A DNA stretch of 55,992 nt, counting the filler, from Streblomastix strix (taxonomy: Eukaryota): assembly GCA_008636045.1 (NCBI GenBank). It is 3 parts of 3 records of this genome, joined end to end, with 100 filler letters (N's around TTAATTAATTAA, not from the genome) between each part and the next. Parts side by side here need not be neighbours in the genome. Positions count along the whole stretch, not along the records: positions 1 to 18,638 come from SNRW01000592.1; 2 more parts are not named here. One strand, 5' to 3'. Made by a program: the position numbers and the translations under genes. A model generated the notes under the pieces. The model had not been told where the DNA came from. It saw only the letters and a list, made by a program, of their open reading frames with translations, and ran no database searches. Positions 1 through 40,736 of the stretch are shown here, piece after piece. Within the stretch, counting starts at the first letter, position 1; every line of letters begins with the position of its first letter.

Positions 1-172
1 TGATAAATTATTACAAATAGTCATTATGATTATTTTTCAAGGCAAACTTTGTGGATAAATTTTTACAGGTTAAACAAAAAGAGGCTCGTATAATCCTTAC
101 GGTTTATTTTTCCGAGTTTGCCACACATATTAAAAATATTGCCAATTTCCTCAATAATTAGTAATTCCGATT
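1..172 (+). repeat. Left terminal inverted repeat of element 1
   Basis: Gapless match to the reverse complement of 18467-18638, with 16 mismatches in 172 nt by hand count. Confidence 0.95.
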
Positions 173-253
173 AACCCCATCCAAATAAACAATAGTTAAT
201 TTATCTATGGGTAATAGATAAAAAATAAATTCATTTTTTTATTTGTGTTACAA

Positions 254-3200
254 ATGTCCAATTTATCGAAATAGGAATTATAAAAGATAATAAAAATATC
301 TAATAATTCTACAATCGGAACTGTTGCTTTACTCAATTAACGAAAGACTGAGTTACTAAAATAACTAAGTTTTCCTAGACGATGGGGAAGATATAACTTT
401 ACTAAAATAGTTTCATTCATCGATGAAAAATAGATGGGTTAATTATAGGATGAAGTTATATAAGAGGACTTATTTAAGAGATAGAAACAAATAGTTAAAG
501 CATCTAACTTTAAAGAAACTAAACAAAAGATAGCTAAGTTATAACACTTTACTTAATAAGAGATAGATGAGTTATAAGAAAAGATATAGTTACATAAAGA
601 TAAAACTGTTCAATAGTAAGACAATTAAAATTATCTTAAGGCTCATATGTTTACTTATCCTTAAGAACCTGTTGATTGTCGAGAAGCTATAGTATAAGCT
701 AGAAGATATAGAGATACTGAAAATATAATTCCAATTAATGATGGGGTATCAATTAAATATTATGATAATAACATTGAAGACTTTGATGATATTATTAATT
801 TAATAAATTAAACTTATGCAAAAAATAATAGAAGAGCTTATAAGATATAATTTATCTTCGGTACTATTTGTGAAGAATTAGAATATGGAAACTTTGTTTA
901 TAAATGTTAACCAATATAAGAAAATTTTATATAAGTACACACTCCATCTATGATAATTAGTAATGAATCACTTGAAGAATATAAATAGTACGTTAAGAGT
1001 TGTGTAATTGAGATGTAAGAATTTTAACAAACCGAATCAACTAATTAAAGATACATTGGCATTTATTCGATGATGGTGAAAGTTAGCTTACTTCCATTAG
1101 CAGGTCTTTGTATGAAAGAGTTAATCGACTAACATTATAATTCTCATAGGTAATAATTATTATATCAAGTTAGCGATTTGAATGATTGCTTCTGGTTATC
1201 ATATTCCAGATTTATATTAAAAGGTAAAGTATCACCTGATCAAATTAGAAGTGAAGCTAAAAAATAAATGAGAAAATTCTATAATCTAACGAAAAAACAA
1301 TACGACAGTTTCATTAACGACTATAAAGGATTTGATTTAACAGATGAACTAAATAAATTCGTTTTAGAGAAAAAGATTAACGTTAATATATTCTAGTATG
1401 ATTAATAGAAGAAGTTCTATTACTAAGGATAGATATTAAATTATAATAAGATGTATGACATTAATTTATCAGATGATTCAGTTGTAGAAGAAACATAGCC
1501 AAAAGAATCAATTTCAACATTCAACATTCTACTAATTTCATCTACTCATGAAAATTAAGATGTGTATCATGTATTCTACGTAATTAACATAGATGGACTA
1601 ACAAGATAAAAATTTTGTCCTCATTATTAATAATAAGCATTTGACCCTAAGGATAATAACTTCAGTAGAGACTATGAAAGTCATGTTAGCTTATGTAAGG
1701 TTAATAGAGGATAAATAATTAAGAAAGTTAAATTAGATGAATAACCTTATCCTTTCTGCCCCATATCTATCGTAATGAAAAATATGCTTATCTTTTAGCT
1801 AACGAGAAAGAAAAATAGTTTAAACCATCTATATATTATATTACAAATGATTTTGAAACTGTTGAACGTAAAGTATTAAAATATTACGGTAAGCTAACAA
1901 ATGTTAATGAAAAGAAATAAGAGGTAATTGACGAACAAAATAATAAATAATTCATCTTCAATAGCTAATGGATATCAGAACTAATTCCACTATCAGTTGC
2001 ATCATCTATTAAATTTAAATGGAGAGATTAATATTAGTAAGACAATTAATACAAATAAATTGAAACTATATTTGGACCTATAGTTTAAAAGACAATCTAC
2101 TTCGACTTACGAAATTGATCTGATTTTATTAATCAATGGTTAGAATAAATATTCGTTGAAGCTTAATAAGTATTGATAGACAACAAAAATGAAAATGAAT
2201 TAATCCCTTATAAATAAAACGTATCTATTATTGTATTCAACTCTTCAAAATTTGATTAAGCTTAAATTCTCAAAATATTTTCATTGTGATAGATAGATAA
2301 TTTAAAATTATATTGGTTATTTCGGTAAATGTAAAATGATTACAGTTGAAAACAACTAATCTCATTAATAAATAAATTTCATTGACGCATTGAACTATAC
2401 TTAACCAACGGACTTAGATTCGTTTGCAAGAGATTTTTGTAACAGTTACAATTAAATAAAAGGTCTATTTCCGTACGAAGGAATCAATTTCGATAACTAT
2501 GACTTTAAGCTATCTAAACAATAGCTCTTCCCAATTAATGCTTTCGCTTCAACTTTGAAAAATAAATAGATGACTGATGATGATTATAAGATATATCTAA
2601 AAGATGCAATTAATTATAATACAAAATGGGACTATCTATAACACTACAATGAATTAGACACGCAAGTAATGATATAACAATTAGATAACTTAATTTATTG
2701 GATCTATTAATGTAAGGTTGATAAGCTTAGTTTCATGAGTCTAGCTGCAAATGTTAATGCGATTAAATATGCTTTAGCATATAAAGATTTCGGTATTAAA
2801 ACTAACAATCCTTAATAATAAACCAAATCAAAACCATTCATATTAACTGAAGCATATTGGAACTATAAAGTTATAGGATATAATAGATAAGACAAAATAT
2901 AACACAGAAGGACAAATAATAATGTAAATATTAATGATTTCAATTATTATAATAATCTATTCGAACATTCAACCTGTTCTATCGGTGATGATAAGTTTAC
3001 AATGAATAATAAGCCTACATTAGATCATATTAATAATAAGATTCCACATACTAAATCAAACTGTTAACCCTGTTTCTTATATAGCAATAGATAAAAATCT
3101 GATAAAGATGAAAAAATAACAAGACTATTTATTTAACTTCGAAGATATTGTAATACTAATAACCTTCCATAAACAATTGTAAATAATGAAGTATATTAAC

Positions 3201-4801
3201 TTTTAAGACGTTTTATTACTGATTGACTATCAAATGTAATGCACCGACAGAATAGAGCATGTATTGATATAATTAAGCTATACTATTATAACTCTGAGAA
3301 TAAAACTATAACAGTTATCAATACCAATCATACTATATCTCATATCTGCGGAGTTGATTTTAACTCATTATACCCTAGTTGTTTCTCATCGTAATACCAT
3401 CCCTTTAATAAATATACTAATGGTATTATGTATTTGTGTGGATCAGTAAGTGGAATAACTGAAGGATTTAAATATTGCTAGAAAAATAATAGAATCAAAT
3501 GATAGATTCAATGAGAAATGTTAATTATTCATAGCATAATTGAGGGGTCATATCGATGAAAGATATGTTAATAATTTTGTTAATTGTCCACTTATAGCAC
3601 GTAACTTTACTTATACAACTGACGAAAAGACTATCGGTAAATATATGTATGATACAATGAAGTAGTGTGGTACTAAGACAGACAAGTAAGAAAGAAAGCT
3701 AACAAATATATTATCATCCCATGGATAATATATGACGTTTAGTTCTTATTAACTATGGTTCTTAATTGATGATTGTCATTTTATAATCGATGATTTTAAA
3801 CAATTAGTTACTTTTAATAAGCATATTAAATTTAATACTTTCGTTAATGTGTTTATGAACAAATGTATAGAAGCTATTAAATAAAAAAATAGTGGTTTGG
3901 ATAAATTTAGTAAGATGATTTTGAATGTTTCTTATGGAAGTGATGGAATGAATACTGAGAAATATAATAAAATAAAACTACTTACAAAAGATAAGACAAA
4001 AGAAACACATACTAAATAAACCTGGATGAATGATCGTAAGTTAGTTGAAAATTTATTTATTGTTTAATTTAGTCCCAAGAATTGTAAGTATAATACATGT
4101 TTATAAGTAGCATATTTTATTTTAGATAATGCTAAATATTGGTATTTTAATTTCATCTATAATTTTATGTATAAATATTTGGATATGACTAAACTTCATT
4201 TCGTCGAAGGAGATACTGATTCAGCTTATTGGGCTATTAGTGGAAAATAAGTTAAGAGGGTTTATTAAGATGGTCAATGTGTTAACTAGTAAGAGTACGA
4301 AGATAACTTACATCAAGGTTTCATCTATGTAATTAAGGATCAATAATTTTACGACACTAACGCAAAGTATTTCTTTTCAACCATCAAAGGTGATAAGTTT
4401 AATGAGAAAAAACTGTTAGGATTAGCTTTCGAAAATGAAGATGATGAGATGTACGCATTAGATTCAAAGAATTATTATATACATACGTTTAAACGTAATT
4501 CATTAGTTGATGTAATTAAACTTAAAGGTGTTAACTTGAAATAGAACAACATAAACAATTTAGATGTAATTGATAATCTTATTAATGGAAAAAATAACAT
4601 AAGGAACTAACATGAGACTAGGATAGATCAATGATTAAATATACGAAGGTGATGTTTCAAAATAATACCATATGAGTAAGTTATTAACAACTAAGAATGC
4701 TTTAACAGTTATAAAATAAAATAGTTGTATTGAAAAATAGTTAAAGTTGTTTACCGTTTATCCATGGATTAACAATTGAATGTTATCTTGATTACCAATG
4801 A
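254..4801 (+). pseudogene. polB: Protein-primed family B DNA polymerase (pPolB) polyprotein, frameshifted
   Basis: Table-6 motifs: Exo I DFET (~1849), Exo II FNSSKFD (~2236), KGLFPYE (~2460), Pol DFNSLYPS (~3297), K..LNVSYGSDG (~3912), EGDTDSAYW (~4206). Collinear with 49068-53648. Several frameshifts and internal TGAs. Confidence 0.93.
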
Positions 4802-4811
4802 GACGATAACT

Positions 4812-5420
4812 CATTTCTTTTTCTTTTATTTTTCACTATGTTTTCTTTTAAGTTCTTTCTATACTTCAATCGATGAAAGCAATTTTTTCTCACTAATATA
4901 ATTCTTTTTAAATTTAACTTATTTTACTTTCTCAGCTTTAGTTAACACATTATTTAACTACTTATACGAACATACTTTATCGTTAATCTTTATACTTATT
5001 TTCATTAATGGAAATTGATTTGAATTAAGAGAATTTAATCCCCAATCCATTGACCCGAGTCTATAATTCATTGCTTAATTCTTATAGATCATTTATATAA
5101 ATTATAATTCTTCAATTTTCTATTATTGATCTTCTTATTATATTAGTGATTATTATTCTTATAGTTAGTTAGTCGACTAAGGTGTTGTAATTGGCGGCGC
5201 AGGCTGTACTCCAATAAATAAATCATCACCTATTTGTTCCTATTCATCTATAGTTATAAGCTATTTATTTTTTTAAAACTCTTATTCTTTTTCTTTTTCG
5301 TTTCTTTCTTCGATATATATTTATCTTTATAATTTTTCATTCACAGGTTATTCTTTAATTCCTAAATCTTATGATTCTTAATTAGCTAAAGCATTGTAAT
5401 TACCATAAGGTTATACGTCT
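4812..5420 (-). pseudogene. 3' half of a core-like protein gene (probable homolog of 46108-47129), fused to the truncated penton
   Basis: GSMDWG / VLTKAEKVK / SSIEVQKELK align by eye with GGLDWG / VLLSKEERL / ASVKAQEQLK of 46108-47129. Lys-rich C-terminus. Confidence 0.45.
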
Positions 5421-6136
5421 TAATAATTATACCTTATATTAAGGTTATATGACTAATCAGCTCCCTATAGGGGTTCGATGGTTGTTATGAAGTTATTACC
5501 TGTAGGTTCATATATTCTTATTAGACCAATACATCGATAAGCTATAGATAAGTCAGGATCATCTATCCAATAGTGATATAAGATAGCATCTAAACGTAAA
5601 TTTATATAATTTAATGCAGAACTACATATATCAGTTCCATTATTTATATTCAAGCTGTATGAGTTTTTCTACTATTTTTATGTATGTTCATTTACACTAT
5701 TATTGAAACAGATAGAATTGGAGTTAGTACTGTTAACTAGTTCAAAATACTATTCCTGTGGATCAATAAAAGAGTTAAAATCAGTTTATTTCAAAGCATT
5801 AACCTATGGGTTATTCATATAAGACCATTTATTTGAATCTAGTGTATGCATATTATTTATTATAGTATTCATCTTAATTCTAATCGGTGGAATTTATTCT
5901 ATATCTTATAGTTTAAATGTTCCATTTGTATTCTTAATTTATTGTTTCAAATTTAATCCTTTTAGATTATATCTTAGTTCTATATAATCATCGTTAATGT
6001 AGAAGCATAAATTTAAAGGTATATTATTCATGCCATCAATTTAAAATTATCTATATCCAGTAGGGGCTTAAGTTATCCATTCAACATAATCCTTTTCGCT
6101 ATCATTGTTAATTATTTCCAATCCTATTTAAGCCAT
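5421..6136 (-). pseudogene. Putative minor capsid (penton) protein, 3'-truncated
   Basis: MAQIGLEIINNDSEKDYVEW...SALNYINLRLDAILYHYWI...IEP...LNIRY is clearly homologous to the N-terminal half of 47561-49033. Homology ends at about 5425. Confidence 0.7.
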
Positions 6137-6159
6137 ATAATCAAAAATAAATTGAATCA

Positions 6160-6744
6160 ATGAATTGATCTCTATGTAGCCGTTTATCTAATTAGGTTCA
6201 TTATTTCCTTTTAATATTATTCATTTGGAATAGTAAAACTAAGTTTTTCATTTTAATACCTCTTTCATTTAACATATCTTTAAAAATATGATTAATTATT
6301 ACTGCTATTGGTAAATTATCGATGTAAACACTAGATCTTTAAACTATTAAAAGATATTTATTAATATTATTTTTATGTAATCTATGTACTTTGTAATACT
6401 TTCCATCAATGTCATCGTTAAATAGTTCAACTGAGTAAACATAATCATATTGTTTATCTTATGGAACTAATCTAGGTTCCATATGTTATATTTTTTTTCT
6501 ATAATCAGTGTTTTCACGTTAAAGTTGTTCGATAATTCTATCTTTATTATCTTCAAAGGATAGATATGTTTGTTAGCTATTTTCATTAAATTGTATATGT
6601 TATTCATCTTTTAAAATCTTTAGCCAATGTAGTTTTCTATTTACTTTTTGTATAATTTTTTAATTATTTTATTTTGCTACTTCGAGTAATTAATTATGCT
6701 AATCGAGTAATGATTATATCGTTTATAGTTGTTCTAAAGACATT
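6160..6744 (-). pseudogene. Viral hypothetical protein, frameshifted
   Basis: Coding-like in table 6 (MEPRLVPQDKQYDYVY...IDNLPIAVIIN). It recalls C-terminal regions of KilA-N-associated proteins of Trichomonas Mavericks (from memory, unverified). Boundaries approximate. Confidence 0.35.
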
Positions 6745-6801
6745 TATTCACAGATAAAAAAACATATAATAAAAATATATAAGCTTAATTAATTATCATA
6801 G

Positions 6802-7344
6802 TCATAGTATACCAACATATTTAGCAATTTCTTCTATTTCATCTATACAATTATTATATAATATAATATCCAGATCGAACTCTTTATTTTTAAATAAAGG
6901 ATATAAATAGTATTTTGCTAATTAATGTAATCTCTCATCTAATTTATTCTTTAAATTTATTTTTTATAATATACCTAATTTGTTCATATCTTTTTCTTTT
7001 ATCTTCTATTCGTCTATTAATTATTGACGTCGTTTTATTTCTATACTAGTTAACAAAGATATTGGTATATTATCAATGTTTGAATCAATACATGCTTAAT
7101 TAAGTTTATCAATTTATTCTTTATAATATTGATTTTTATCCTTTGGATTATTACATTCTCTTTAGATGGAAATATATGATTGTTCATCATTAGTTTAACC
7201 ATTAAGCTTTTCTTCTATTCTATCAAGTTTATCACTAACCTATTTTAATTACACTGATAAATCAAATAGCTATTATGTATCTTCTAGTAATTTATTTATA
7301 GCTTTTGAGTTATCTTCTATATCATCAACTTAGTTATTATCCAT
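6802..7344 (-). pseudogene. Viral hypothetical coiled-coil protein
   Basis: MDNNQVDDIEDNSKAINKLL... is open for about 130 codons, then frameshifts. Confidence 0.45.
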
Positions 7345-7364
7345 TTGTATAGGGTAAAAATAAA

Positions 7365-8517
7365 TCAATTTAACAATGATTCGAAATATAATTAGTCTTC
7401 TTTCTACTGTTAATCAATCTATTATTTTTCTTCTTGAGTTAATTTCTTCAATTAGATCTTTTACATTATATTGTTTATATGAATGGTTCCGCCTAGGAGC
7501 GACATCCATAATTTTATTTAATAAAAAATATTGTATGAATTTTACTAACAATTTTCATAAGTGCAAAAATCATAATTTTGCATATATGTGAAAAACAGAA
7601 AAAAATATAATTTTTTCTTTACGCTATGAGTTGAGTGCAATATGTCTTGAATTTTTATAAATTATATTTTTAAAAATATTTAAATTTATTTTATTTCATA
7701 ATATTTCAGAAACAGACATACGCGCCGACGTAAATTAAAAAAAATAAAAATTCTCAATTTTAGCGAGTAATTTTAGATTTTTATGTCATTTTTCAATAAA
7801 TTTTAATAATATATTTTATTTAATAAATAAATTGAATGACTATTTTTTATTTTATTTGAGAAACGCGTGCAAGATATGACAGTAAAAAATTCAAAACAGA
7901 TTTTCTTGAAAATATTGATTATTAATATGTATATTTATTAGTCATTTACATTTAAATATTTAAAATTAAACAAAATAAATTAAAATAATAATAATATTAA
8001 ATGTCCATCTTGCAAAAATCAAGAATTTCTTTATCTGTCGATTTTCATCGGCACGTATGGATGTTTCTGAAATATTATGATATAAAATAAATTTAAATAT
8101 TTTTAAAAAATATAATTTTTAAAAATTCAAGGCATAATGCACTCAACTCATAGTGTAGAAAAAAAATTATTTTTTTTTCTGTTTTTCACATATATGCAAA
8201 ATTATGATTTTTGCACTTATGAAAATTATTAATAAAATTAATACAATATTTTTTATTAAATAAAATTATGGATGTCGCTCCTGGGCGGAACCATCCATAT
8301 CTATTGGGTAAATATATTGATATTAACTATATTACTTAAGCTATTTAAAATACTTTGTTTTACCATTTTTAGATTCGAGTAATTAATAGAATTGTTTGTT
8401 TTATAATCTTAGACCATTAAACTTATACTCACCAATCTTATCAATAACCTTACCGCTAGTCTTATTATTATCCTGTAATTAGTGGAATTTTTATTTATCT
8501 AATTTTGTATATGTCAT
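7365..8517 (-). pseudogene. 110-aa viral hypothetical gene interrupted by a MITE
   Basis: Removing 7481-8300 gives a clean 333-nt ORF: MTYTKLDKQ...YIYPID|INNIMQKIQLKK...FESLLN*. Confidence 0.8.
7481..8296. mobile_element. Non-autonomous DNA transposon (MITE), ~255-bp TIRs, ATAT target-site duplication
   Basis: 7481-~7735 (GAATGGTTCCGCCTAGGAGCGACATCC...) is the inverse of ~8042-8296 (...GGATGTCGCTCCTGGGCGGAACCATCC). ATAT flanks both sides (7477-7480, 8297-8300). The AT-rich interior is non-coding. Confidence 0.9.
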
Positions 8518-8574
8518 TTATGTAAGTAGTAAAAAAATAAAAAATAAATTAAAATCACTAGTTTTTATATCTCA

Positions 8575-8784
8575 TTATCTCGGTCCGTTAATATATCTAT
8601 CTACCTCACCTGCTAATTTAGCCCCTACTCCCATAGCTGATCCTATCGCAGGATGAATCATTCTTACTGGAGCAGCTAATGTACCTAGAACTTTATTCAA
8701 TGTTGGAGCAACCCAACCTGCAGCTTTAGTTATACCCCCTAATATTTTACTACCGAAATTTTTAAGACCTGACCAGAATCCCAT
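8575..8784 (-). CDS. Small amphipathic virion protein, adenovirus protein-VI-like (putative membrane-lytic, possibly myristoylated)
   Basis: Intact 69-aa ORF MGFWSGLKNFGSKILGG.... WSGLKNFGS resembles the adenovirus pVI amphipathic helix (LWSG[I/L]KNFGS). N-terminal MG. Divergent from the putative MCP. Confidence 0.7.
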   Translation of the reverse strand: MGFWSGLKNFGSKILGGITKAAGWVAPTLNKVLGTLAAPVRMIHPAIGSAMGVGAKLAGEVDRYINGPR

Positions 8785-8812
8785 TTATTATAATAAAAAT
8801 TAATCTAAGTAA

Positions 8813-11192
8813 ATGTTAAACTGTTTCTTTTTATAATCTAAACGTCATTTGCATCAAGCGAATATTTGAAACGATTAGTATCAGCATAACATTCGGATTA
8901 CATTAATTCATACTTATAATTCTAGGAAGTATTATAGGCTTAAACTATCATACCATAATCATTTGGTATATCTAAGTAATAATTCTTCGACTGGGTCAAT
9001 TTCTATGGTAGCATTATTTTTAGCTTTAGCTGTAACAAAAATAATGGTACTAAATTTTGCAAATTAAATAATTCATAAATTACAATGTCTATACATACTT
9101 TTTAGAGAAATTTATTTAACAATTATTCCGACATTGCTTTTAAAAATTTAATTCTTCATAAATAATTTAAGCTAAAATTAAATTTCTATTTAAAATTTTA
9201 ATTTCTTAAAAATATAAAAAAATTGGTAATTTTATATTTTCTTTGTAATCAGTTTTATTTTTGTTATTTTGAAAATTAGTTACTGTTAAGTTAATATATA
9301 GTTCAAATTATACATATATTGAATTATATGCATCTCCAGTTATCTTGTTTGTTACGCATTAATGATACCATCGGAACTGACCTACTAGCCTACGACTTAA
9401 CTTACGAATGATGGTGCTCATTATACTAGAGCTTTTCTTACAGCTAGAGGAACTGCAACATGTTCATGTATTTAAACTTATTAAATCAGTTGGTAAATTG
9501 AGACACTTAAAATACATTAGCGATATAGGTTAATGGAGTAAAAGTAGATGGAGCAGGTGCTAATAATATAAGAATAAAATAAATATCAAATTATAATGCT
9601 ATTGATACAGGAGTATGGGATACACCTTAAACAGTAACAATGTAATCTGGTGCTACAGGTGCAACTTAATAACCATATAATACTAATGAACACATTAAAT
9701 TTTGGTTAGGTTTCTCAACAGCCTGTGGACCTTTTAATTAGATAGCTATATGTAAAGATTCATAGAAATTGTGGGATATTTCAATATATGCTAGAGAGTA
9801 AGCAATAATTGCATCAAACTCATTGACTGATTAATGTACCTCTAATTCTGTAACAGTTTCTCCACTTGAAAGTATAGTTTAAGATAAACGACATTGTGGG
9901 ATGTTTATTGATATACCTGTATCTGCTATTAGTGTTGCCACTGCTTTTAATTATTTAATTCCATATGATATAATAATTTGTGGAGTAATGGATATATACT
10001 AACTGAACCTTATCTTTAATAGCTTTCCTGTATTTACTAGAAATTATGCGTCATTGTATAAATAATTATGGATGTAAGACTTTCTGTAAGATTTGAAAGT
10101 TGTTTGGTTAAATAAGTATAATCCAGTAGATAATACATATCTAGCATATGCAATGATTCCACCGGAGAAACCGGATATAATTTTCTTGAAAAATAGAGAC
10201 GCAGCAGTAGCGTATGATAAATATGCTATTAGATTGGTTAATATGGAAGGTAAACCTATTAAAACTACTATATCTATAGTTACTATAAGTTAAATTAAAA
10301 ATACTAAATTTACTGAATTATATATATAAATAACAAATGTTTAAATATGAAGAATGAAGGTGTAATTATTGATATGATACGTAATTAAAAAATTATTAAC
10401 TTCCCAACATAAATTTTACGTACTTAATCATCTAACAATCCTGCAAGTAATATCGGAGATAGTGGTGGATTTATTTAAACAATAATGTCATTTGCTAACA
10501 TCAAGTCTTTATTTGTTACATTTGCTATATCATAATATCCTACATGGTTCCTCTCTATTCTATTCAAAACTATTGATTTGATTATAAATTAACGTCAAGT
10601 TATTCCGAGTGCTTATCTTGCATTAACTTAAGATGTTTATGGATAAATGTTTGATTGTTTCGTTGATTAAGATGTAGTTAGTGCCTCATCCGATTTATAT
10701 CATTCGTTATTGTTTGAAAACTAATCTATTGATGATAAGAATTATCCTTATGGTTATGAAGGTGGTGCTAGAATGGCTGAGAATGTGTTTTATAATACCA
10801 CATTGTATTAGGGATCTAAAGCAGTTAAAACATTCTATTCAAATAAGATTATGCTAGCATGGAAATTAGCTACTGATGATTCATTTATGAGAGGATATAA
10901 CTCATCTAAAATAGGAGCAAGAACTAATATACAAGTATAAATTGGATTTACACCTATAGATAATATATGTACCGATGAAGTCATAAGACCTGCTCTTCTT
11001 GATTAAAATGATTTTAAATATTTTACATCCACTAGATGTTATCCCAATATTAAGAATGTTAAATTGACACCATTTCCTCATTATCTATGTGATGGAATTG
11101 TTCGAATAATGTTTGATGATAATCCTGATCCATAAGTACTATCGTTAAAGATTATCGGTGAGATAGGTGGAAGTGCAATTAGATCAGGTTGA
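8813..11192 (+). pseudogene. Putative double-jelly-roll major capsid protein, frameshifted
   Basis: About 600 codons of beta-rich coding sequence (KFWLGFSTACGPFNQIAI...FPTQILRT...LAWKLATDDSFMRGYNS...HYLCDGIVRIMFDD...EIGGSAIRSG*). Assignment rests on size, composition and context. 5' end uncertain (8813-9330). Confidence 0.6.
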
Positions 11193-11217
11193 AAACAATT
11201 ATTTTTACTTATTTTAA

Positions 11218-11720
11218 ATGAATCAAGATCAATAAAAAGTATTCAAAGTATTAATGACAAAGATAATCAAAGATAATTTTCAAGATAATAAGCTTATACA
11301 ATAACTTGATAGTATAATAAATGATATTCTATAAAATAGTGAATGTGTAGATAAATCAAAAGCATATTCTCATCCACTTTACTATGAGTTAATTAACCTT
11401 AGTAATAATTTTGATATAATGAATGAAAGATTGTAATAGTTTAAACGATCAAGCGATATAGAATAATACAATAATAAGATATACAATGAAAATCATTAAG
11501 AATATATAAAAACATATAATAAATGTAAAGAAGAGATAAACATTAATCCAAAAAAATCAAAATAAAATAGTACTTATTAATGGATGCAACTAATGAAGAT
11601 TAATAGATATTTAATTAGTTTGTATCAGAATAGAAACATAAGTTGTTTTACGATTATTATTAATTAAATCCAATCATCTTAAAGGATCAAACTGAGCCAG
11701 TATAGTAAGATAGTCAATGT
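11218..11720 (+). pseudogene. Conserved viral orphan A (homolog of 55287-55745)
   Basis: HPLYYELINL vs HPLIQELMRI, and QIFNQFVSEQ...YYQLN vs QIYIQFVNDE...YYQLN. One frameshift; 3' end approximate. Confidence 0.6.
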
Positions 11721-11949
11721 ATTTTATTAATTCTTTACACTTATCTGAAAGTATTAATTCATCACTATCGTAATACTTATCTTAAATTTCTTAGTAGTAT
11801 TAATTCTATTTTTATTGTGTTTCGTTTATTGGTTTATCATTGATAAAACCTGATCCTCTATGTAATGCTTCAAAGATATGATATACCTCATTATCTGATG
11901 CGTTAATCTTTTATCCTAGTTTTTAAGATATTGTAAACAATTATTCCAT
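11674..11949 (-). CDS. Conserved viral orphan B, 91 aa (homolog of 55079-55327)
   Basis: MEQLFTISQKLG...HIFEAL...IKYIDYLTILAQFD vs EQLYQLATNIG...KIFEAL...IQYINNLIILNQVD. Confidence 0.65.
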
Positions 11950-12503
11950 TTATATACAAATAAATTAAATCATTTTTTATTAAGATAAGACTCAGTTATA
12001 CGTATTGAATCTCGTGTATGATCAAGTAAAGCATATAGATGTCGTACTTATTTTTACTTTAGTTCTATATCAAAATCTACCATTTCTTTAGTCTTTTGTT
12101 TATATTCGTTTAATAGTCATGTTTCTAACTGTTTAAGATAATCATACCATGTTTAATCCATTTTAAACAGGGAACAAAAATATAATCAAAGATCAATATC
12201 AACTTCATATTATGGATATCTTTAATCATCAGCTTTTTGTGCTACTCTAGTATTATGTAACTTACATTAATCATTACTAAGTAATTTCAATTATTTAATA
12301 TACTTAACTTTATCGTTAACAATTTTAATATTAGCTTTGTAATCTGTTATTTGTTAATCTGTCAAGAATTATTAACAAAAATATATTTAAAACATTTCAT
12401 AATTATCATGTGGGATATTACTTGTCAATATTATTTCACCTTAATCATTTGTATATACTATCTTATAATTCATTTTGTATATAAATAAAAAAAAGATAAA
12501 ATA

Positions 12504-14630
12504 TCATCTTTCTTAGTAGCATGGATCAAATTGTAAAGCGTGACCTCTCCAGAATATATTAGTTCCATTACTATAGAATCCACCATCTGTTCCTGTACTA
12601 TTTGTACCCCATACGATTGGATTACCTGCTGAGTAGTTAACTGATCCATTAGATGCTCCAGTTGATGCACCAGTTCCAGCTATAACTGATCCATTGAAAG
12701 ATAGAGTGTTTCCATCAGCTGAGATCATTAGTCCTTTATTATCCTATACAGCTTATGATCCAAGTCCTATCTTAAATTATCCATCTGCTGTAACTGCTAT
12801 GTTCCATTAATCAGATAATGTGCCTGTTGATGAATTTGGATCACAACTTATATTATTTTACTGTATGTTTTTATACCTGTTATCGTTTAATCAGATGATA
12901 TATCAACGAATTAATTACCATTGAAAGTTAATGTGTTTCCATTAGCACTAATTTATAATCCTCTAGTTGTTTCAACTGAATCAGATGACAATTTTATTTC
13001 AAAACCTAATGGATTATTAACATAATTACTTGGTGATGTAAATATTTACCATTAGTCTGCTATATTACCATTGATAGATGATCTACTACATCCTAAAAAA
13101 ATCGATGAACCACCTGTACTTTCTACTGTTCTTGCTATTTTCAAACCATCATCATAATTATTTACTGATGGATTTATTTACGTATTACCATATATATTTG
13201 GAAATAATTAGTATATGCTACTTTACACTGTAGGTAATGCTGGTTGTGCATCAGTAGTTAATATATCAGTAATATTACCTTAAAAAAGCACTTATATCAG
13301 TCTATGATATGAACGTATTATAAGTGAAATCATCAATTCTGCCCCAAAATTCACCATATCTATTTATACCAGTTCCAAAATATAATATCCACACGTAATT
13401 AAAACAGAAAGATTGCGATGTGATAAACTAATATTAATAATTATCTATCTCTATATCTTATGTCCAATGTTAATAAAATTATATATTTCCAAATCCAATT
13501 CTAGTATTTATTTTGAATTCTATTGAATTATCAAAAGTAGTATTTAAAGCAATAAATGTACATAATTTAATATATAGGGGTTATTCAATAACTTGATATA
13601 ATTTACTTGCTAAAACTACTTTTTTTAGTTGTCCCATCTGCTAGTAATATGTCATTATCTGTCCCTCCTGTTTTAATAAATTTAGTTGCTGTAACATTTC
13701 CATCGTAAGTTAATTATTAAAGATGAACGTGATCATTTCTACAATAATAATCACTAGTTCCATTAGTTGCAGCAGTAGCATTTACAAGAGGTACATTTGC
13801 ACTACTTGGATCAACATTAAGAGGATGTTAATGCGTAGCACTAGAATAGATATTAGATGTACCTGCTGTTCCAATACGTGAATCTTTTTGTGGAACTCCA
13901 TTACTTAAATTTACATGATGAGTATGATCTGATCTAGCATAAGAATTAGCTGTACCTTCTTCACCTGTAGCAGTATCTTACTGTTGTATGACAGTAGGAA
14001 CTTACAGTGGATGTTTATGATCTGATCAAGAATATTCATTACTTATACTAACATAACCTGATACAACTAATTCTTAAGGTTTTAATTCACTAGCAGGTGT
14101 AACTTAATCAGGTACTATTTAATCTGTTTCATACCAAATTGTATCATATACCCATACTTATAAATCTTCAGCATTATAAGCATAATCACCTTTAGATACA
14201 TCTTTCAAAGCTAATATCTCATCGTTAGTTATAAAATAACCTCTGAAATGAGTCTATCGTGCTAACTCAGTGTTAATAACTGATACATCAGCCTATAGCT
14301 ATCCTATGTCTTAACTGTAAACGATAATTTATTACTATATGTTTTATAACTATTATTCTAGTATTATTATTTTTATATGAAAACATTGTTTATTAGTTGT
14401 ATATTGTTAACTATCAATAGCCCATCTTACGGTAGTTTCATAGCATAGACAGAAGGATTGTTCGTTTAGCAATAGAATAGATTGTTTTAATCATCTATTA
14501 TTAATTAGTAATCATTATTCGAAGCAATACTATTCGAACTATTCTTTTTTGAGTATTACATATAATCACAAATATCTGAATGTATTAATCGTTTGATTAC
14601 TGACAATTTCTATTACGAAAAAGAAGTCAT
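12504..14630 (-). pseudogene. Tail-fibre-like virion protein with HxH repeats
   Basis: Repeats SDHKH, ARSDHTH, ATHQH, RNDHVH; motifs ATKFIKTGGT...ILLADG and DQTITGIKT; twice GLxISAxGNTLxFNG. The C-terminus is homologous to 55772-55992. Frameshifted. Confidence 0.7.
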
Positions 14631-14644
14631 TTAAGTTATATTAA

Positions 14645-15034
14645 ATGAGTATAATATCTTTAATAATGTCAATATTTAACTATATATTCTATGGTGCTAA
14701 CTTCTTATTATCTGTTATTAGTTTATCGATACCAGATCAAGCATAAGAATTAATCAATGTATTTAAAAAACTATAGAGTTATCTTGATGAAATAGTGATT
14801 GCAATTAGCATTATAATATATATTGTTAAATTCTTCAATCATCGTAAAATGTCAATTAAAAAGGATCTATATTGGAGTTAATATACGATTGGTGAGTTGT
14901 ATTAGTTAGTATAATTAGCGATTGACGATAAGTATCGTAAACTGGCTTGGCATTATAGATACTTAATTACTTTAAAGTTGATTAATTAAAACAATTAAAA
15001 TGAATCTATCAGAAATAAAGCAAATATAATTTGA
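14645..15034 (+). CDS. Conserved small membrane protein next to the ATPase (129 aa)
   Basis: Two hydrophobic segments. NYIFYGANF...SIPD...HYRYL is shared with 54685-55068. Confidence 0.7.
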
Positions 15035-16033
15035 TGCGTATAATATGTTAGATGAATATAAAACAAAACCATTAACACCTAAATCTATCTTTCTTATTAA
15101 CGCAAACCATTATATTGCTGGAGCTGTTGGAAGTGGTAAAACAACATTAATGAGTAAACTAATTGTATTATATAAACATATAATTAACCTTTATATATTA
15201 TACTTCTCAAATATGGGACCTAATGAAAGTATGTCATTAAATATAAATGAAAAAAATATATCAATTAGTAACATAACTTATAATGAAGCGATGATCTTCT
15301 TACCATAGTTCGATGAGATTAAATACAAGATTAAAGAGATATAAACTTATTGGAAATTAAGGCAAATGAAAGTTACATATAATAGTCACTACTTTAAATA
15401 ACTTAAATAGAATATGTTCGATATAAATGAATTAAAAAAAGATGAAACCTATTAATAGTTTACAACTAGAATGAAAGAGTAATTTAAAATCTATTGTATT
15501 GAAACATTCAACGAATATAGCTATCCTACAAAAATAATGTAATTTGTCATACCACCGTTAGTTTAAAATGTTAGTTATGAGAATAGATTGAAAATAATTG
15601 ATACATAAGAAATAGATGAAGATGGAGTTACTATAATTAAAACGTTAAAATTACCTATACTTTAAAATGCAAAATAATTATCTACATTAATGATCTTTGA
15701 TGATATTGGTTCAAATACAGATATATAAAGATATACTTCATAGTTATCATGTACAATTACTCATCTTGTCAATGATAGTAGACATTCTAAAAATACATTA
15801 TTCTTTGTTGCATAACGAATGTAGTACTTGTTTAAAACTGCTCGAATATTATGTCATGTGATAGTCCTTGGGGTTAATTTAGGAGATAGTGATTTGAAAT
15901 ATATTTATGATGAGAATAATATAATCACACTATCAGAGTAAAAGCTAATTATATTATATATAATACATTGAATAAGTATGAATTTATTGTTATTAATAAG
16001 TGGTTTTAAAGATTTGAAATTATTAGGTAATGA
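15000..16033 (+). pseudogene. A32/FtsK-like genome packaging ATPase (frameshift near 15960)
   Basis: Walker A GAVGSGKT, Walker B LMIFDD, Arg finger DSRH, conserved FVAQ, KTARIL. Long insert between Walker A and Walker B. Confidence 0.9.
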
Positions 16034-16185
16034 CAAATTTTATTTTTAATTTAAATAATATTTTGGGAAGTAATTAGTTGTATTTCATTAATGATTATAG
16101 CTTGTAATCATCTATTAGGTTGTATGTTAACAATATAGCAAATAAAAATAGATAAAGAAGTGATTAGTGATGAAGTAAGAAATTC

Positions 16186-17225
16186 AATTTACTCGTGAGA
16201 ATTCATGATGTAAAATTAATAAAATAATTACCATTAATTTCAGCATTTAATGGTGAAGGTAAATTTATAAGAGAATTAGAATTGATAATAATTTACCCCT
16301 GCTAATTGATTATACAATCAAAATATTAATTTATATTAGCTGATGAAGCCGTTAAATGCTACATGGTTACTAACCCTGCAAATTTAGGAATAAAATCAGC
16401 ATCAACATACCCTACAGTAACAGGAATACTAGTAGAACCGCCTTATGATACCCAATGGAGATATACGCTAATATAAACTACTCCAATACAATTAACGACT
16501 AATGAACCTTAACTTAAACCGACTATATAATCTTCTGCGTGAAAGGTTCCACTTTTTGTTGTAATTGGTGCTATAATTTAATCATTGAATTTAAGTGAAA
16601 TACAATAGAAATTAATAATTAGACCTTTAATATCATATGCTTAATCTTCTTATTTTTATATTCCAAATTATGATGAAGTAGATCCAACTTTCCATACACC
16701 ATCTCTATTCGTAGGGTCAATATTACAGCCAGTAAGTACAAAACTATCCCAATTTGCTTTATTTTTCAATATCCTGATACCTTAATCTAATATAGTATCA
16801 TTCGGTTCAATAATTAATTAACCCATCGCACGAGGATACTATTTTGGTAATAAATCACCTACATCAATTATATCACCATTATCTAATAACAATTAATTAA
16901 TTGTTCCATTATTTTTTATAAATTAATTCGCTTATATTGATTGTGTGAACTATTTTTATCCTGTTACTGTTTGATCAGTATTTATTGTCATTAAATTAGA
17001 TAAATCAACTTCCTTAGTTTTCATGTATTAACTGAAATAAGTAAACAATTTAATAATCTCTGTATCAATGAAAGAGGTTAATTATTTTTATAATTTCTCT
17101 AATTACTTTACTTCCTTTTATTTTTATTATATCTCTTACAGTTAATTTTATTTATTAATTAACTCCTCTTCAGTTGGTTCGATTATTGATTCCATTTGTT
17201 TAAAAGTAAACTGATCAGAATTCAT
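16186..17225 (-). CDS. Second tail-fibre-like protein (3' end may be frameshifted)
   Basis: N-terminal coiled coil, then TDQTVTGQKQF and ANQFIKNNGT..LLLDNG motifs shared with 12504-14630, then a beta-rich C-terminus. Confidence 0.6.
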
Positions 17226-17865
17226 TTATATTTATTTCTGATTATGGCTTATCTGATAGTATAGCGAAGTTCATGTTAAAACGATATAGCTTCTCAACTG
17301 AGTTCCAAAGAACATTATCAATTACACTAATACTTACATTTTTAATTAGTACATCCATTACTCTAACAAAGTCTTTCTTCTTATATTTCTTTGCCATACA
17401 TGAATGTAATTACATTAATTGTTCATCTAATACTATTTCAATATCATCTTCGTTTTCGTATGTAATCAATGACCAAAATTTATTGTAGTTATCGCTATTC
17501 AATATGAAATCAACTCCTCGTTTTCTTGATGTAGTTACTCTCCAAATACAATCAATAACAAATTTAAGTACTTCTAGATTTGGATGAGCTAAGAAAGTAT
17601 TTTTAACTGCATCGTCAGGTTCAACTTAAGCAGTTTCTCGTTCTACTTCTTTGTATTTATTTTTATTGTAATGTCTCTTAGGTCTAACTTCATCTTTAAT
17701 GATATCATCTTTAATTTCTTATTAAGGAGTTGATAAGTTTCTCAAGGCTTAATCAATCGATTATAATCTAAGTTTATCTTCCTCAGATAACTCTATCTTC
17801 ATGTTTTCGATTTATTTCTTTGATTTATTTATAATGTGTTAATTCCTCTCGATACTTGAAATCAT
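17215..17865 (-). CDS. Viral hypothetical protein (216 aa)
   Basis: Uninterrupted table-6 ORF MISSIERNQH...INEF*. Confidence 0.65.
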
Positions 17866-17896
17866 TTAAATCTATTAAATATTTTATTATTGATAA

Positions 17897-18118
17897 ATGG
17901 ATAAATCGTAAGCCTTAAGAAAATTAAAAGAAAATGGAACTATATTTGAAAGCTTCATTGGAGGCTATCTAATGTAAATAGGTAAATAGATTAAGATATA
18001 TGAAGATGGATAAAAAGAGTCTTAAAGTATTAACACAAGCTTAGTAAAATAAGTAGTTAAAGATGCCCGTAATAAAAGAATAAAAATAAGTCGAACGATT
18101 AATGTATCAAGACGATGA
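17897..18118 (+). CDS. Viral hypothetical protein (73 aa, basic)
   Basis: Open table-6 ORF MDKSQALRKLKENG...SRR*. Confidence 0.5.
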
Positions 18119-18450
18119 AAACGAAAGTGAAGAAGAATAAGAAGTATAAGTTCCAATAGTTAAAAAGGAAGATTAAGGTAATATAAAAATAACCTACTAT
18201 TAATTATTCTACTCCAAAGATAGATCTTGAAGAACTAATTAAATTGCGAACTGAAAACTAATTTATCAAGAAATAGCATATCGAAGCATAAAAGTAAATT
18301 AATAAATATAGGAATAAACTTAAATCAATGAAACAAGTTAAAGAACCTTCAATTAAAGAATAACCTATTGAATAATATCAAACTTAAGAATAACGAATTT
18401 AAGAATAAGTTAGTGAAAGATATATTAATGAATTCGAGCTATTTTAATGA
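18102..18450 (+). pseudogene. Viral hypothetical acidic/coiled-coil protein
   Basis: MYQDDENESEEEQ..., one frameshift, ends ...INEFELFQ* just inside the right TIR. Confidence 0.45.
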
Positions 18451-18466
18451 TTATTTTTGGAGTTTA

Positions 18467-18638
18467 AATCGGAACTACTAATTATTGAGGAAATTGGCAA
18501 TATTTTTAATAAGTATGGCAAACTCGGAAAAATAAACCGTAAGGATTAAGCGAGCCTCTTTTTGATTAACCTGTATTAATGTTTCCAAACAGTTTGCCTT
18601 GAGAAATAATCATAATGACTATTTGTAACGATTTATCG
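18467..18638 (-). repeat. Right terminal inverted repeat of element 1
   Basis: Reverse complement of 1-172. Confidence 0.95.
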
Positions 18639-18738
18639 NNNNNNNNNNNNNNNNNNNNNNNNNNNNNNNNNNNNNNNNNNNNTTAATTAATTAANNNNNN
18701 NNNNNNNNNNNNNNNNNNNNNNNNNNNNNNNNNNNNNN
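18639..18738. other. Artificial contig linker
   Basis: N44-TTAATTAATTAA-N44 six-frame-stop spacer. Confidence 0.99.
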
Positions 18739-37324: not shown

Positions 37325-37424
37325 NNNNNNNNNNNNNNNNNNNNNNNNNNNNNNNNNNNNNNNNNNNNTTAATTAATTAANNNNNNNNNNNNNNNNNNNN
37401 NNNNNNNNNNNNNNNNNNNNNNNN
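37325..37424. other. Artificial contig linker
   Basis: N44-TTAATTAATTAA-N44. Confidence 0.99.
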
Positions 37425-38738: not shown

Positions 38739-40736
38739 ATGATAATGGCTCCTCAGAAGAGGGATGAAAGGATTGGAGAATTAATATATAAAGAGAAAGC
38801 AGATGGAATGGGAGGAAAGACTAAAAGATTTAAGTAAATATGGGAATAAGTAGGGAAAGGAGAATTCATAAATACTGGATTTTATCCGAGATTTAAAGAC
38901 TATAATAGCTAGTAAAGACTAGAGGAAAATAGAATGATAATCCCGTTTAAGGGAACATAAGAAGAAAAGAAAGCATATCAAGAAATGTTGAGAGAGGAAT
39001 TGGAAGAAAAAATAGTAGTGCCGATTCAATAAGACTAAGTTAAATGGTGGAATCGCACATTCCTAATAAAGAAACCCAACGGAACATGGAGAAAGATTCT
39101 GGATGCGAGTAAGTTGAATAAAGAAATAGAGAAATTACATTTCAAAATGCATGGACTAGAGGAAGTACAATACCTAGCAAACTAAATGGATTATGCAACA
39201 TCTCTCGATCTTAAATCAGCATTTCACCACATCACAGTATCTCCAAACTCAATACCATACCTAGTATTAAATTTTAATAATAATAATTACGCATATTAAG
39301 CAATGCCATTTGGAACTAAACATAGCCCAATCTTCTTCGCAGAGGCAATAGAATCAATCCTGAGATAAATAAGAATACACTCAGAAATTAAAATACTGAA
39401 CTATTGTGACGATATACTGTTAATCCATTAAGATAAATAAATACTTAAAACATAAACAATGGAAATAATGAAGACATTGGAATAGTTCGGATGGACAGTC
39501 TCAATGGATAAATGCGAAACAGAACCGAAATAAATAATAACATTCCTGGGATGGATATGGAACTTGAAAGAGATGAATATAGGAATGTCAGAAGAGAGAA
39601 AGTCAAAGATGATATAGGAATTGAAAGACTGGTGTAATACAATATATAAGAACAAGAACGTAAAGATAAGATAATTAGCAGCATTGATTGGTAGACTGAA
39701 CTTCCTGAGACCCCAGATAAAGGAGGCGTCGCTGTACCTAATAGAATTGGACAAAGCGAAAACACCAGCATTAAAGACAGGATCATGGGATGGAATAATG
39801 ATTGTGAATAGAGTAGTAATCAAGGAATTGAAATGGTGAATAAGGAGAATAGGGGATAACCAATCATAATCACTGATTCACAGAACAATAACATGCATGC
39901 TAACAACGGACGCATCACCATAAGGCTGGGGAGCGACGCTAATATATGAGAACCAGATAGAACTGTTACAACACGACTGTTGGAGCGAAAAGGAAGCGGA
40001 AATGGTAAGCAACGCTAAAGAAATAAAAGCTATTTATTACGGGCTACTACGTTTCGAGCAAGTCTTCAAGAAGATGCGAGATCAGGCAATCTTGATACGT
40101 TCCGACAACACAACAGCAGTCTACGATATTGGGAAATGGAAAGCGAAGGAATTTCTGACAGAAAAAATATAGCAGGTATTTTATCTAGTCAAGAGACTTA
40201 AACTACAAATTACAACAATCCACATTCCAGGAAAACTGAACTCAACAACAGACTCACTCTCGAGACTATGCAGATCGGGAGATTACGCACAGAAGGACGG
40301 AATGATTTAAATGATTTGCAGGACATGGAACTACATGCCACAGATAGACATATTCGCAATACAATATAACAAACTAATTAACAACTACATAACAGTGGAT
40401 TTCAACGATCTGGGGACACACTTCCATAACGCGTTCAACTACAAATGGAGTAAAGTTAAATTATACATCCATCCACCAATACCAGTATTAAGTAGAGTAT
40501 TACAGAAGATGAAACAAGATAAAGCACAGGGAATAGTAATAGCACCGATTTGGCCGGGACAATCGTGGTACACCAAACTAAAGAATTTATCCACCAAATT
40601 CCTTTTCCTTGGACAAGCAGATAAGATCCTGGAGATGGGACAGAGAATGAAAGACAATGATCAAAAACTTCCACCAGGCAATGTGGGCGCCTTCCTTTTG
40701 GACCTGTCGCAGACGTTGGAAGAGACTTACTAATGA
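38739..40736 (+). pseudogene. pol: pol: reverse transcriptase + RNase H + adenine-methyltransferase-like domain
   Basis: WRKILDASKLN, LDLKSAFHHI, MPFG..SP, YCDD; RNase H TDAS..GWGA, E, SDN, HIPGKLN..DSLSR; MTase-like IDIFA...YIHPP...APIWPGQSWY. One in-frame TGA at 39837. Confidence 0.93.

Follow-up and report, generated by a model that had tools for sequence, protein, structure and literature searches.

A small gene beside the capsid gene in a Streblomastix strix Polinton-like element encodes a predicted membrane-penetration peptide, probably related to the C-terminal fragment of virophage capsids

A 70-aa protein, P0002, is encoded beside the major capsid protein gene of a Polinton-like element in the genome of Streblomastix strix. 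The best explanation of our data, which we hold with fair confidence, is that P0002 is a candidate penetration peptide of an oxymonad Polinton-like virus and is likely homologous to the C-terminal fragment of virophage capsid proteins. The gene itself is almost certainly real and conserved, and its product is predicted with good confidence to be membrane-lytic. Its likely function is that of a virion membrane-penetration peptide.

The window, i.e., the whole stretch of 55,992 nt that was analysed, consists of three joined contigs with N-padded spacers at 18639–18738 and 37325–37424. Contig 1 (1–18638) is almost exactly one 18.6-kb Polinton-like element with terminal inverted repeats; it contains genes for a protein-primed PolB, a P-loop ATPase and a capsid protein. 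The features expected of a Polinton-like virus are thus present, namely terminal inverted repeats, protein-primed PolB, packaging ATPase and double jelly-roll capsid, the last of them on the basis of names and weak fold matches. The following features are referred to below:

2–194, left terminal inverted repeat, 87–88% identity to the right arm
26–4786, plus strand, region whose homologue on contig 3 matches Pfam DNA_pol_B_2 above cut-off
8572–8784, minus strand, P0002 ORF of 70 aa, ATG at 8784, TGA stop at 8572–8574
8650–8655, minus strand, H44–P45 kink, P45 invariant in alignment A2
8725–8778, minus strand, amphipathic helix, residues 3–20, hydrophobic moment 0.60, charge +3, shuffle P 0.005
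8734–8745, minus strand, ILGG, a proposed adenain site, not conserved and rejected
8749–8775, minus strand, motif WSGLKNFGS (W4–S12), common to mastadenovirus pVI residues 41–49 and some virophage capsid tails
8842–11192, plus strand, major capsid protein gene, a broken copy in which the start position reads ACG, 394 bp are inserted and the frame shifts twice
8993–9386, MITE-like insert of 394 bp in the capsid gene, ~23-bp imperfect inverted ends and a 3-bp flanking duplication
14946–15971, plus strand, P-loop ATPase, matching P-loop families below cut-off only, likely the packaging ATPase
18445–18637, right terminal inverted repeat, 87–88% identity to the left arm

It should be mentioned that the middle part of the element contains a long inverted repeat with 216-nt arms (91% identity), shortly downstream of P0002 (7477–8300).

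The ORF and its N-terminal sequence were found on the minus strand where they had been predicted, head-to-head with the capsid gene, and 57 bp separate the P0002 ATG (8784) from the start position of the capsid gene (8842). The prediction of an intact ORF was correct, while its length is 70 aa instead of 69 aa after correction of the genetic code. The protein is Gly/Ala-rich, cationic (net charge +6) and helical, and the GC content of the ORF is 40% vs 25% for contig 1. In the element TAA and TAG encode Gln, since an intact homologue has Gln opposite 36 of the 41 table-1 stops of the capsid alignments. The same code was described for endogenous viruses of S. strix (Bellas 2023, PMC10120064). 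In the aligned stretches the number of stops fell from 123 under table 1 to 5 under code 6. Thus, the apparent decay of contig 1 is mostly due to the alternative code. The true damage amounts to ~2 lesions per kb (11 lesions in 5.6 kb of three neighbour genes), and a 213-bp ORF would escape it by chance with P ~0.66. Therefore the intact state of this copy provides no evidence of selection and was rejected as a sign of it. A second copy of the ORF was not found within the window.

The neighbouring capsid gene was identified from UniRef names and from weak fold matches (best E 5e-3) that are led by the double jelly-roll capsids of mavirus, ASFV and PBCV-1, the underlying model being poor (pLDDT 42). 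Its sequence profile had no match in PDB, no sequence likeness to virophage capsids was detected, and a search of IMG/VR for relatives of the Streblomastix capsid found none. According to a 2026 preprint (10.64898/2026.06.19.733378), capsids of Metamonada have been confirmed by modelling only. Within the window, the MITE-like insert of the gene occurs once. An amphipathic tail at the C-terminus scored in none of 82 capsid homologues from Streblomastix, some of which are partial. Five pairs of consecutive locus tags, located on contigs of equal length, link a P0002-type gene with a capsid gene. In five gene models (P0263, P0306, P0038, P0041 and P0051) the small ORF is fused on the same strand with the capsid gene or with a gene like that at 12546–14310; these are likely model artefacts and no real fusions, and in some subfamilies the small ORF and its neighbour are probably co-oriented.

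Searches for relatives of P0002 revealed 33, 85 and 222 matches. In the first of them 30 of the 32 non-self matches were labelled Streblomastix strix; the 85 proteins were obtained at E ≤ 0.001 by HMM search. The Streblomastix proteins form several subfamilies with identity down to ~50%. A sister family of stand-alone proteins of 75–76 aa, encoded on contigs up to 20 kb in length, aligned with the Streblomastix family in hhalign at 98%. Pfam scans of P0002, its family and 45 virophage tails revealed no meaningful family, P0002 itself giving no match. No significant match was obtained in PDB with P0002, the family profile or the tail profile, and the single sequence of P0002 retrieved only thrombopoietin (E ~0.9). 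In the phage collection all matches had E ≥ 0.2. Of 118 matches in a metagenome pattern scan, 117 were unrelated bacterial proteins (EAL-like, labelled by eye) and one was a true relative, L171, on a 639-bp stretch. As a lead, the Atlas gave clusters in which Parabasalia predominate (scores 0.89 and 0.91). One stand-alone relative, P0101 (66 aa, a single sequence), has a short leader ending in GG followed by the helix, a layout between a free gene and pVI.

On sequence scores, the nearest relative of P0002 is the released fragment of virophage capsid proteins, which is closer than adenovirus pVI (35 vs 14 bits). Among 88 pattern matches of an IMG/VR scan with the family alignment five loci were confirmed; all five encode Sputnik-type capsid proteins (Pfam above cut-off), and the match is located in the C-terminal tail, where the motif starts directly after a GG-type site. 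The last residue of the Sputnik chain 3j26 is the aligned Gly that immediately precedes the helix, and the natural cut is thereby placed right in front of it. To reduce the bias towards the motif, a larger tail set was taken from capsids found on core motifs, of which the best 80 of 303 yielded 61 distinct complete ones; as the ranking was by likeness to a motif-bearing seed, this set leans to the motif clade. Among these 61 tails from the best 80 of 303, a helix with a moment of at least 0.45 stands at the tail start in 53 (vs 6% of shuffles), GG is found at the aligned cut in 44, a basic end (charge at least +3 in the last 15 residues) occurs in 47, as in pVI, and PHP, comparable to the H44–P45 kink of P0002, is present in 19.

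An HMM of the 56 tails (from the best 80 of 303) that had not first been found through the motif assigned 35 bits to P0002. Its medians, each followed by the 95th percentile for shuffles with the residue-class pattern preserved, were 35.2 bits for the Streblomastix family (22.5), 38.1 for the sister family (24.8), 14.1 for pVI (10.6) and 7.7 for segments of tape-measure-like phage proteins (10.2). With an HMM of the 25 most distant tails from the same best 80 of 303, P0002 scored 22.9 bits and its family 23.1 against a control 95th percentile of 16.1, whereas neither the sister family (12.7 vs 12.8) nor pVI (3.5 vs 4.7) exceeded its control. After removal of residues 1–13 the score of the Streblomastix family became borderline (10.3 bits vs a 95th percentile of 10.0), and that of the sister family stayed above its control (17.1 vs 12.7). 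In hhalign P0002 aligned with the virophage tails at 97%, and the likeness extends to the His/Asn–Pro kink, as seen when L235 is compared with the sister family and L316 with the PHP tails.

Stand-alone versions were also revealed outside Streblomastix. An aquatic Polinton-like contig (L175, the same as L314) encodes a 123-aa version beside structural genes. On two other aquatic Polinton-like contigs, L315 and L316, picked by capsid similarity, the capsids have no tail and no protease was detected; L316 encodes a stand-alone protein beginning Met-Gly-Phe-Phe that ranked first among 72 ORFs with each of the three HMMs (~27 bits), and L315 contains only weak stand-alone candidates. Thus, the helix exists both as a capsid tail and, where the capsid is tail-less, as a free gene. 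Taken together, homology of P0002 to the virophage capsid tail appears quite probable. It should be mentioned that small basic proteins with a common terminal LHKGEMVIP motif are encoded at L314:3357–3566 and L316:3992–4330, with three in a row in L175/L314; they are possible core proteins. The capsid C-termini of L001–L005 and L176–L255 show a pVI-like order of GG, amphipathic helix, Gly-rich linker and basic terminal peptide.

In mavirus, GG cuts in the capsid protein were described and an endosome-rupturing amphipathic helix was proposed for its fragment MCP-C1; in native virions the tail fragments went undetected (Born 2018, PMC6048507). P0002 shares with virophage capsid fragment 1 an N-terminal amphipathic helix, the SG[LI]KxFG motif (in one clade), the Pro kink and a Gly/Ala-rich second helix. 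The virophage fragment is released at GG by a viral cysteine protease (PMC6048507). In contrast, P0002 is not fused to a capsid C-terminus with GG release; it is a separate Met-Gly gene accompanied by a highly divergent tail-less capsid, it lacks a basic end piece following a second GG, and no protease was found. In contig 1, which is damaged, HMMs of virophage proteases and adenain detected none, their sensitivity across families being low (best control E 2.5e-4).

The amphipathic helix that had been proposed was supported by the comparison of sequences, which showed it to be conserved. Its hydrophobic face is formed by F3, W4, L7, F10, I14, L15 and I18, and its moment of 0.60 equals that of pVI (0.60) and falls within the range of four virophage tails (0.57–0.64). 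In 84 full-length homologues positions 3, 4, 7, 14, 15 and 18 are at least 98% hydrophobic, with swaps of W/F, L/I and I/V; as these homologues were filtered on an N-F-G-like triplet, positions 9–11 do not count as independent. The AlphaFold model, one long helix (pLDDT 70, pTM 0.28), was uninformative. From these features, the helix of P0002 probably works like the lytic helix of pVI.

The proposed mechanism starts from two observations: both here and in other copies the gene adjoins the capsid gene, and a tail of this kind is missing from the capsid protein. The P0002 protein may be packed within the capsid beneath the capsomers. Since it begins with Met-Gly followed directly by the helix, removal of Met would yield a free N-terminus like that made by the GG-cutting protease in virophages and adenoviruses, so that a protease would not be needed. 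On uptake the protein would be released and lie flat in the vacuole membrane via F3, W4, L7, F10, I14, L15 and I18, with the lysines at the interface, and this surface-parallel insertion would rupture the membrane by positive curvature, the mode of rupture described for pVI (PMC4113798).

Two other functions were considered. P0002 might only bind the capsomer base as a scaffold or cement for assembly, or tether the genome, with no lytic role. Linkage to the capsid gene agrees with this, as does the C-terminal domain of the mavirus capsid protein, a scaffold that confers assembly competence (Born 2018, PMC6048507); however, a free N-terminus that is strongly cationic and amphipathic, together with the likeness to lytic peptides, points elsewhere, and pVI performs both jobs, i.e., the roles are not exclusive (PMC8310329). 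A purely structural role therefore seems unlikely to us. Even less credible is a lytic factor acting outside the virion, either a peptide for exit (lysis) or one of antimicrobial type directed against bacteria of the host: the likeness to antimicrobial peptides would fit, but P0002 has no leader before the helix, is encoded among structural genes, and has its best relatives within a capsid protein.

As regards the candidate penetration peptide, the original prediction compared it with adenovirus pVI and held it to be homologous to or convergent with this protein. A closer relative, the virophage capsid fragment, had been missed, as had the alternative genetic code. The sequence WSGLKNFGS is identical in the pVI chains of PDB and in IMG/VR adenoviruses; ~0.04 exact 9-mers shared with a library of the size of PDB would be expected. 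P0002 matches pVI at 9 of 12 positions, and its F3 and G11 correspond in the alignment to L40 and G48 of pVI, mutants of which impair lysis (PMC8310329, PMC4113798). In PDB six of the nine matches of the family profile were pVI (E 0.76–8.8, residues 3–16). The match with pVI spans 9–19 residues, and nothing aligns beyond pVI residues 40 to ~57. None of the 26 members of alignment A2 matched Pfam MCPVI (PF02993) at E ≤ 10. Common to both are WSG[LI]KNFGS, the equal hydrophobic moment and a gene adjoining the capsid gene. Unlike pVI (201–312 aa), P0002 has 70 aa, below the pVI-type length of ~200–300 aa with a basic C-terminal cofactor peptide, and lacks the PPxY region and the C-terminal protease cofactor. 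A propeptide with an adenain GG before the helix is also absent: P0002 starts as Met-Gly-helix, and its sole GG is inside the helix. P0002 falls outside the pVI family, and its homology to pVI is a possibility to which we give slightly less than equal weight.

One may suppose that P0002, the virophage tail and the pVI helix all derive from one lytic helix of a Polinton/virophage/adenovirus ancestor that was fused or split; this extends the best explanation given above and is not opposed to it. SG[LI]KxFG is kept within each lineage, being present in 42 of 51 pVI (taken from 56 hexon-selected loci), in 16 of 61 virophage tails (from the best 80 of 303) and in most Streblomastix copies. In the same 51 hexon-selected pVI the exact motif was found in 33 and a near form in 47, including that of one divergent adenovirus (L309, whose hexon is 63% identical to the query). 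Exposure by a GG cut and a basic end (47 of 61 tails, best 80 of 303) are features that pVI has in common with the virophage tail, and the layout of P0101 (short leader, GG, helix) is pVI-like. The tail HMM (best 80 of 303) assigned 13.0 bits to the hexon-selected pVI, above the control 95th percentile of 9.7, and 10.8 bits vs 8.2 to 17 pVI without the exact motif.

On the other side, hhalign did not place pVI above motif-matched controls. For the Streblomastix family pVI reached 95.9% over 19 columns vs 96.3% for tape-measure-like controls, picked for the same motif as P0002; for 45 tails (from the best 80 of 303) the controls reached 73% vs 34% for pVI, and the sister family vs pVI gave 37%. 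The 45-tail profile was derived from the 56 tails (best 80 of 303) by exclusion of 11, mostly short ones without a clear helix plus a near-duplicate. The pVI score with the distant-tail HMM (best 80 of 303) is below control, as given above, the alignment ends near pVI residue 57, and the exact 9-mer is present in 29 of 83 Streblomastix-type copies and in 0 of 56 tails (from the best 80 of 303) not found via the motif. Common descent of all three helices is conceivable and remains short of probable.

Alternatively, the three might have arisen separately, since cationic amphipathic helices with a Gly start use a narrow set of letters. A motif scan revealed 51 loci, of which 36 are pVI, four virophage tails, three off-motif and eight long phage proteins classed as tape-measure-like from their length and Trp-periodic repeats. 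With a joint profile, tape-measure proteins and designed coiled coils outranked pVI. The 45-tail profile (from the best 80 of 303) gave 15 PDB matches, among them pVI (six, E 0.47–1.4), a 46-aa birnavirus peptide (2imu, E 0.31) and the antimicrobial peptide 1fry (E 0.64), all three of them membrane-active. Matches level with pVI support a lytic function and at the same time demonstrate that convergence is able to make such a signature. Besides, 1fry agrees with P0026, a member of one of the subfamilies, in 8 of 13 positions, comparable to the 9 of 12 for pVI and P0002, and at the level of a lead Atlas ranked cecropin (0.78) beside pVI (0.76). The birnavirus peptide is presumably pep46. Described as pore-forming, pep46 is, like the virophage fragment, cut from the C-terminus of a capsid precursor (PMC5297794); it scored as well as pVI. 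It belongs to a dsRNA virus with an unrelated capsid and protease, and is most likely an analogue that shows how far convergence can go. However, 2imu and 1fry reached only ~14–15 bits with the 45-tail profile (best 80 of 303), the 56-tail HMM (best 80 of 303) separates the stand-alone families (medians 35–38 bits) from tape-measure-like segments (7.7), and the likeness runs on to the His/Asn–Pro kink (L235, L316). Pure convergence of all three is therefore rather unlikely.

A cleavage site and an N-terminal modification had also been proposed for P0002. The sequence ILGG does fit the adenain consensus as given in PMC6048507. It is present in 43 of 83 full-length Streblomastix-type homologues and in 0 of 17 members of the sister family, and it lies inside the helix, which a cut would divide, whereas the GG sites of pVI and virophages directly precede the helix. 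With this conservation and no protease detected in the element, adenain cleavage at ILGG was rejected and is very improbable. Gly2 is conserved (75 of 83 Streblomastix-type and 17 of 17 sister homologues). The PROSITE myristoylation pattern excludes a large aromatic residue at position 3 and calls for a small residue at position 6. It was matched by 0 of 26 and 0 of 17 homologues, with Phe3 in all 43; position 6 is small in 20 of 26 and 0 of 17. Myristoylation is thus doubtful, and Gly2 may instead serve to give a free N-terminus after Met removal.

Predicted membrane-active core proteins ("Macc") of MELD viruses are already in print (PMC8502044, 10.1101/341131, 10.1101/2024.03.25.586562). Like P0002, the Macc proteins (adintovirus Cupiennin, PLA2X and GasderminX; adomavirus LO6) are small predicted membrane-active proteins of the virion module of a Polinton-like virus; the reports, which we set beside P0002 by description, concern mainly animal viruses, and pVI did not cluster with Macc proteins. 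In the full-text literature searched, which left most subscription papers outside its scope and included PMC12220804, PMC11296320 and 10.64898/2026.06.19.733378, we found no report of the P0002 family or of a sequence link between the stand-alone proteins, the virophage tail and pVI, nor any mention of a pVI relative from a protist virus.

The P0002 family provides a candidate entry peptide for protist Polinton-like viruses. P0002 is also the first candidate that we found for a sequence bridge to pVI, and the argument from fusion or fission supports the membrane-lytic function proposed in 2018 for the tail of virophage capsids. We put forward, tentatively, that one ancient lytic helix underlies the entry of Polinton-like viruses, virophages and adenoviruses: as a free Met-Gly gene where the capsid is tail-less and no protease is needed, as a GG-released tail, and as the core of pVI. 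If so, endosome escape of adenoviruses would predate animals, and Polinton-like viruses would have a recognisable entry gene. If the likeness is due to convergence, unrelated non-enveloped viruses have reached nearly the same helix.

Finally, a second Polinton-like element was revealed on contig 3 (49542–54740), with PolB above the Pfam cut-off and a P-loop ATPase; the part of it present in the window contains no P0002-type ORF. Retroelement ORFs, encoding reverse transcriptase and RNase H-like sequences, are located at 38739–40736.
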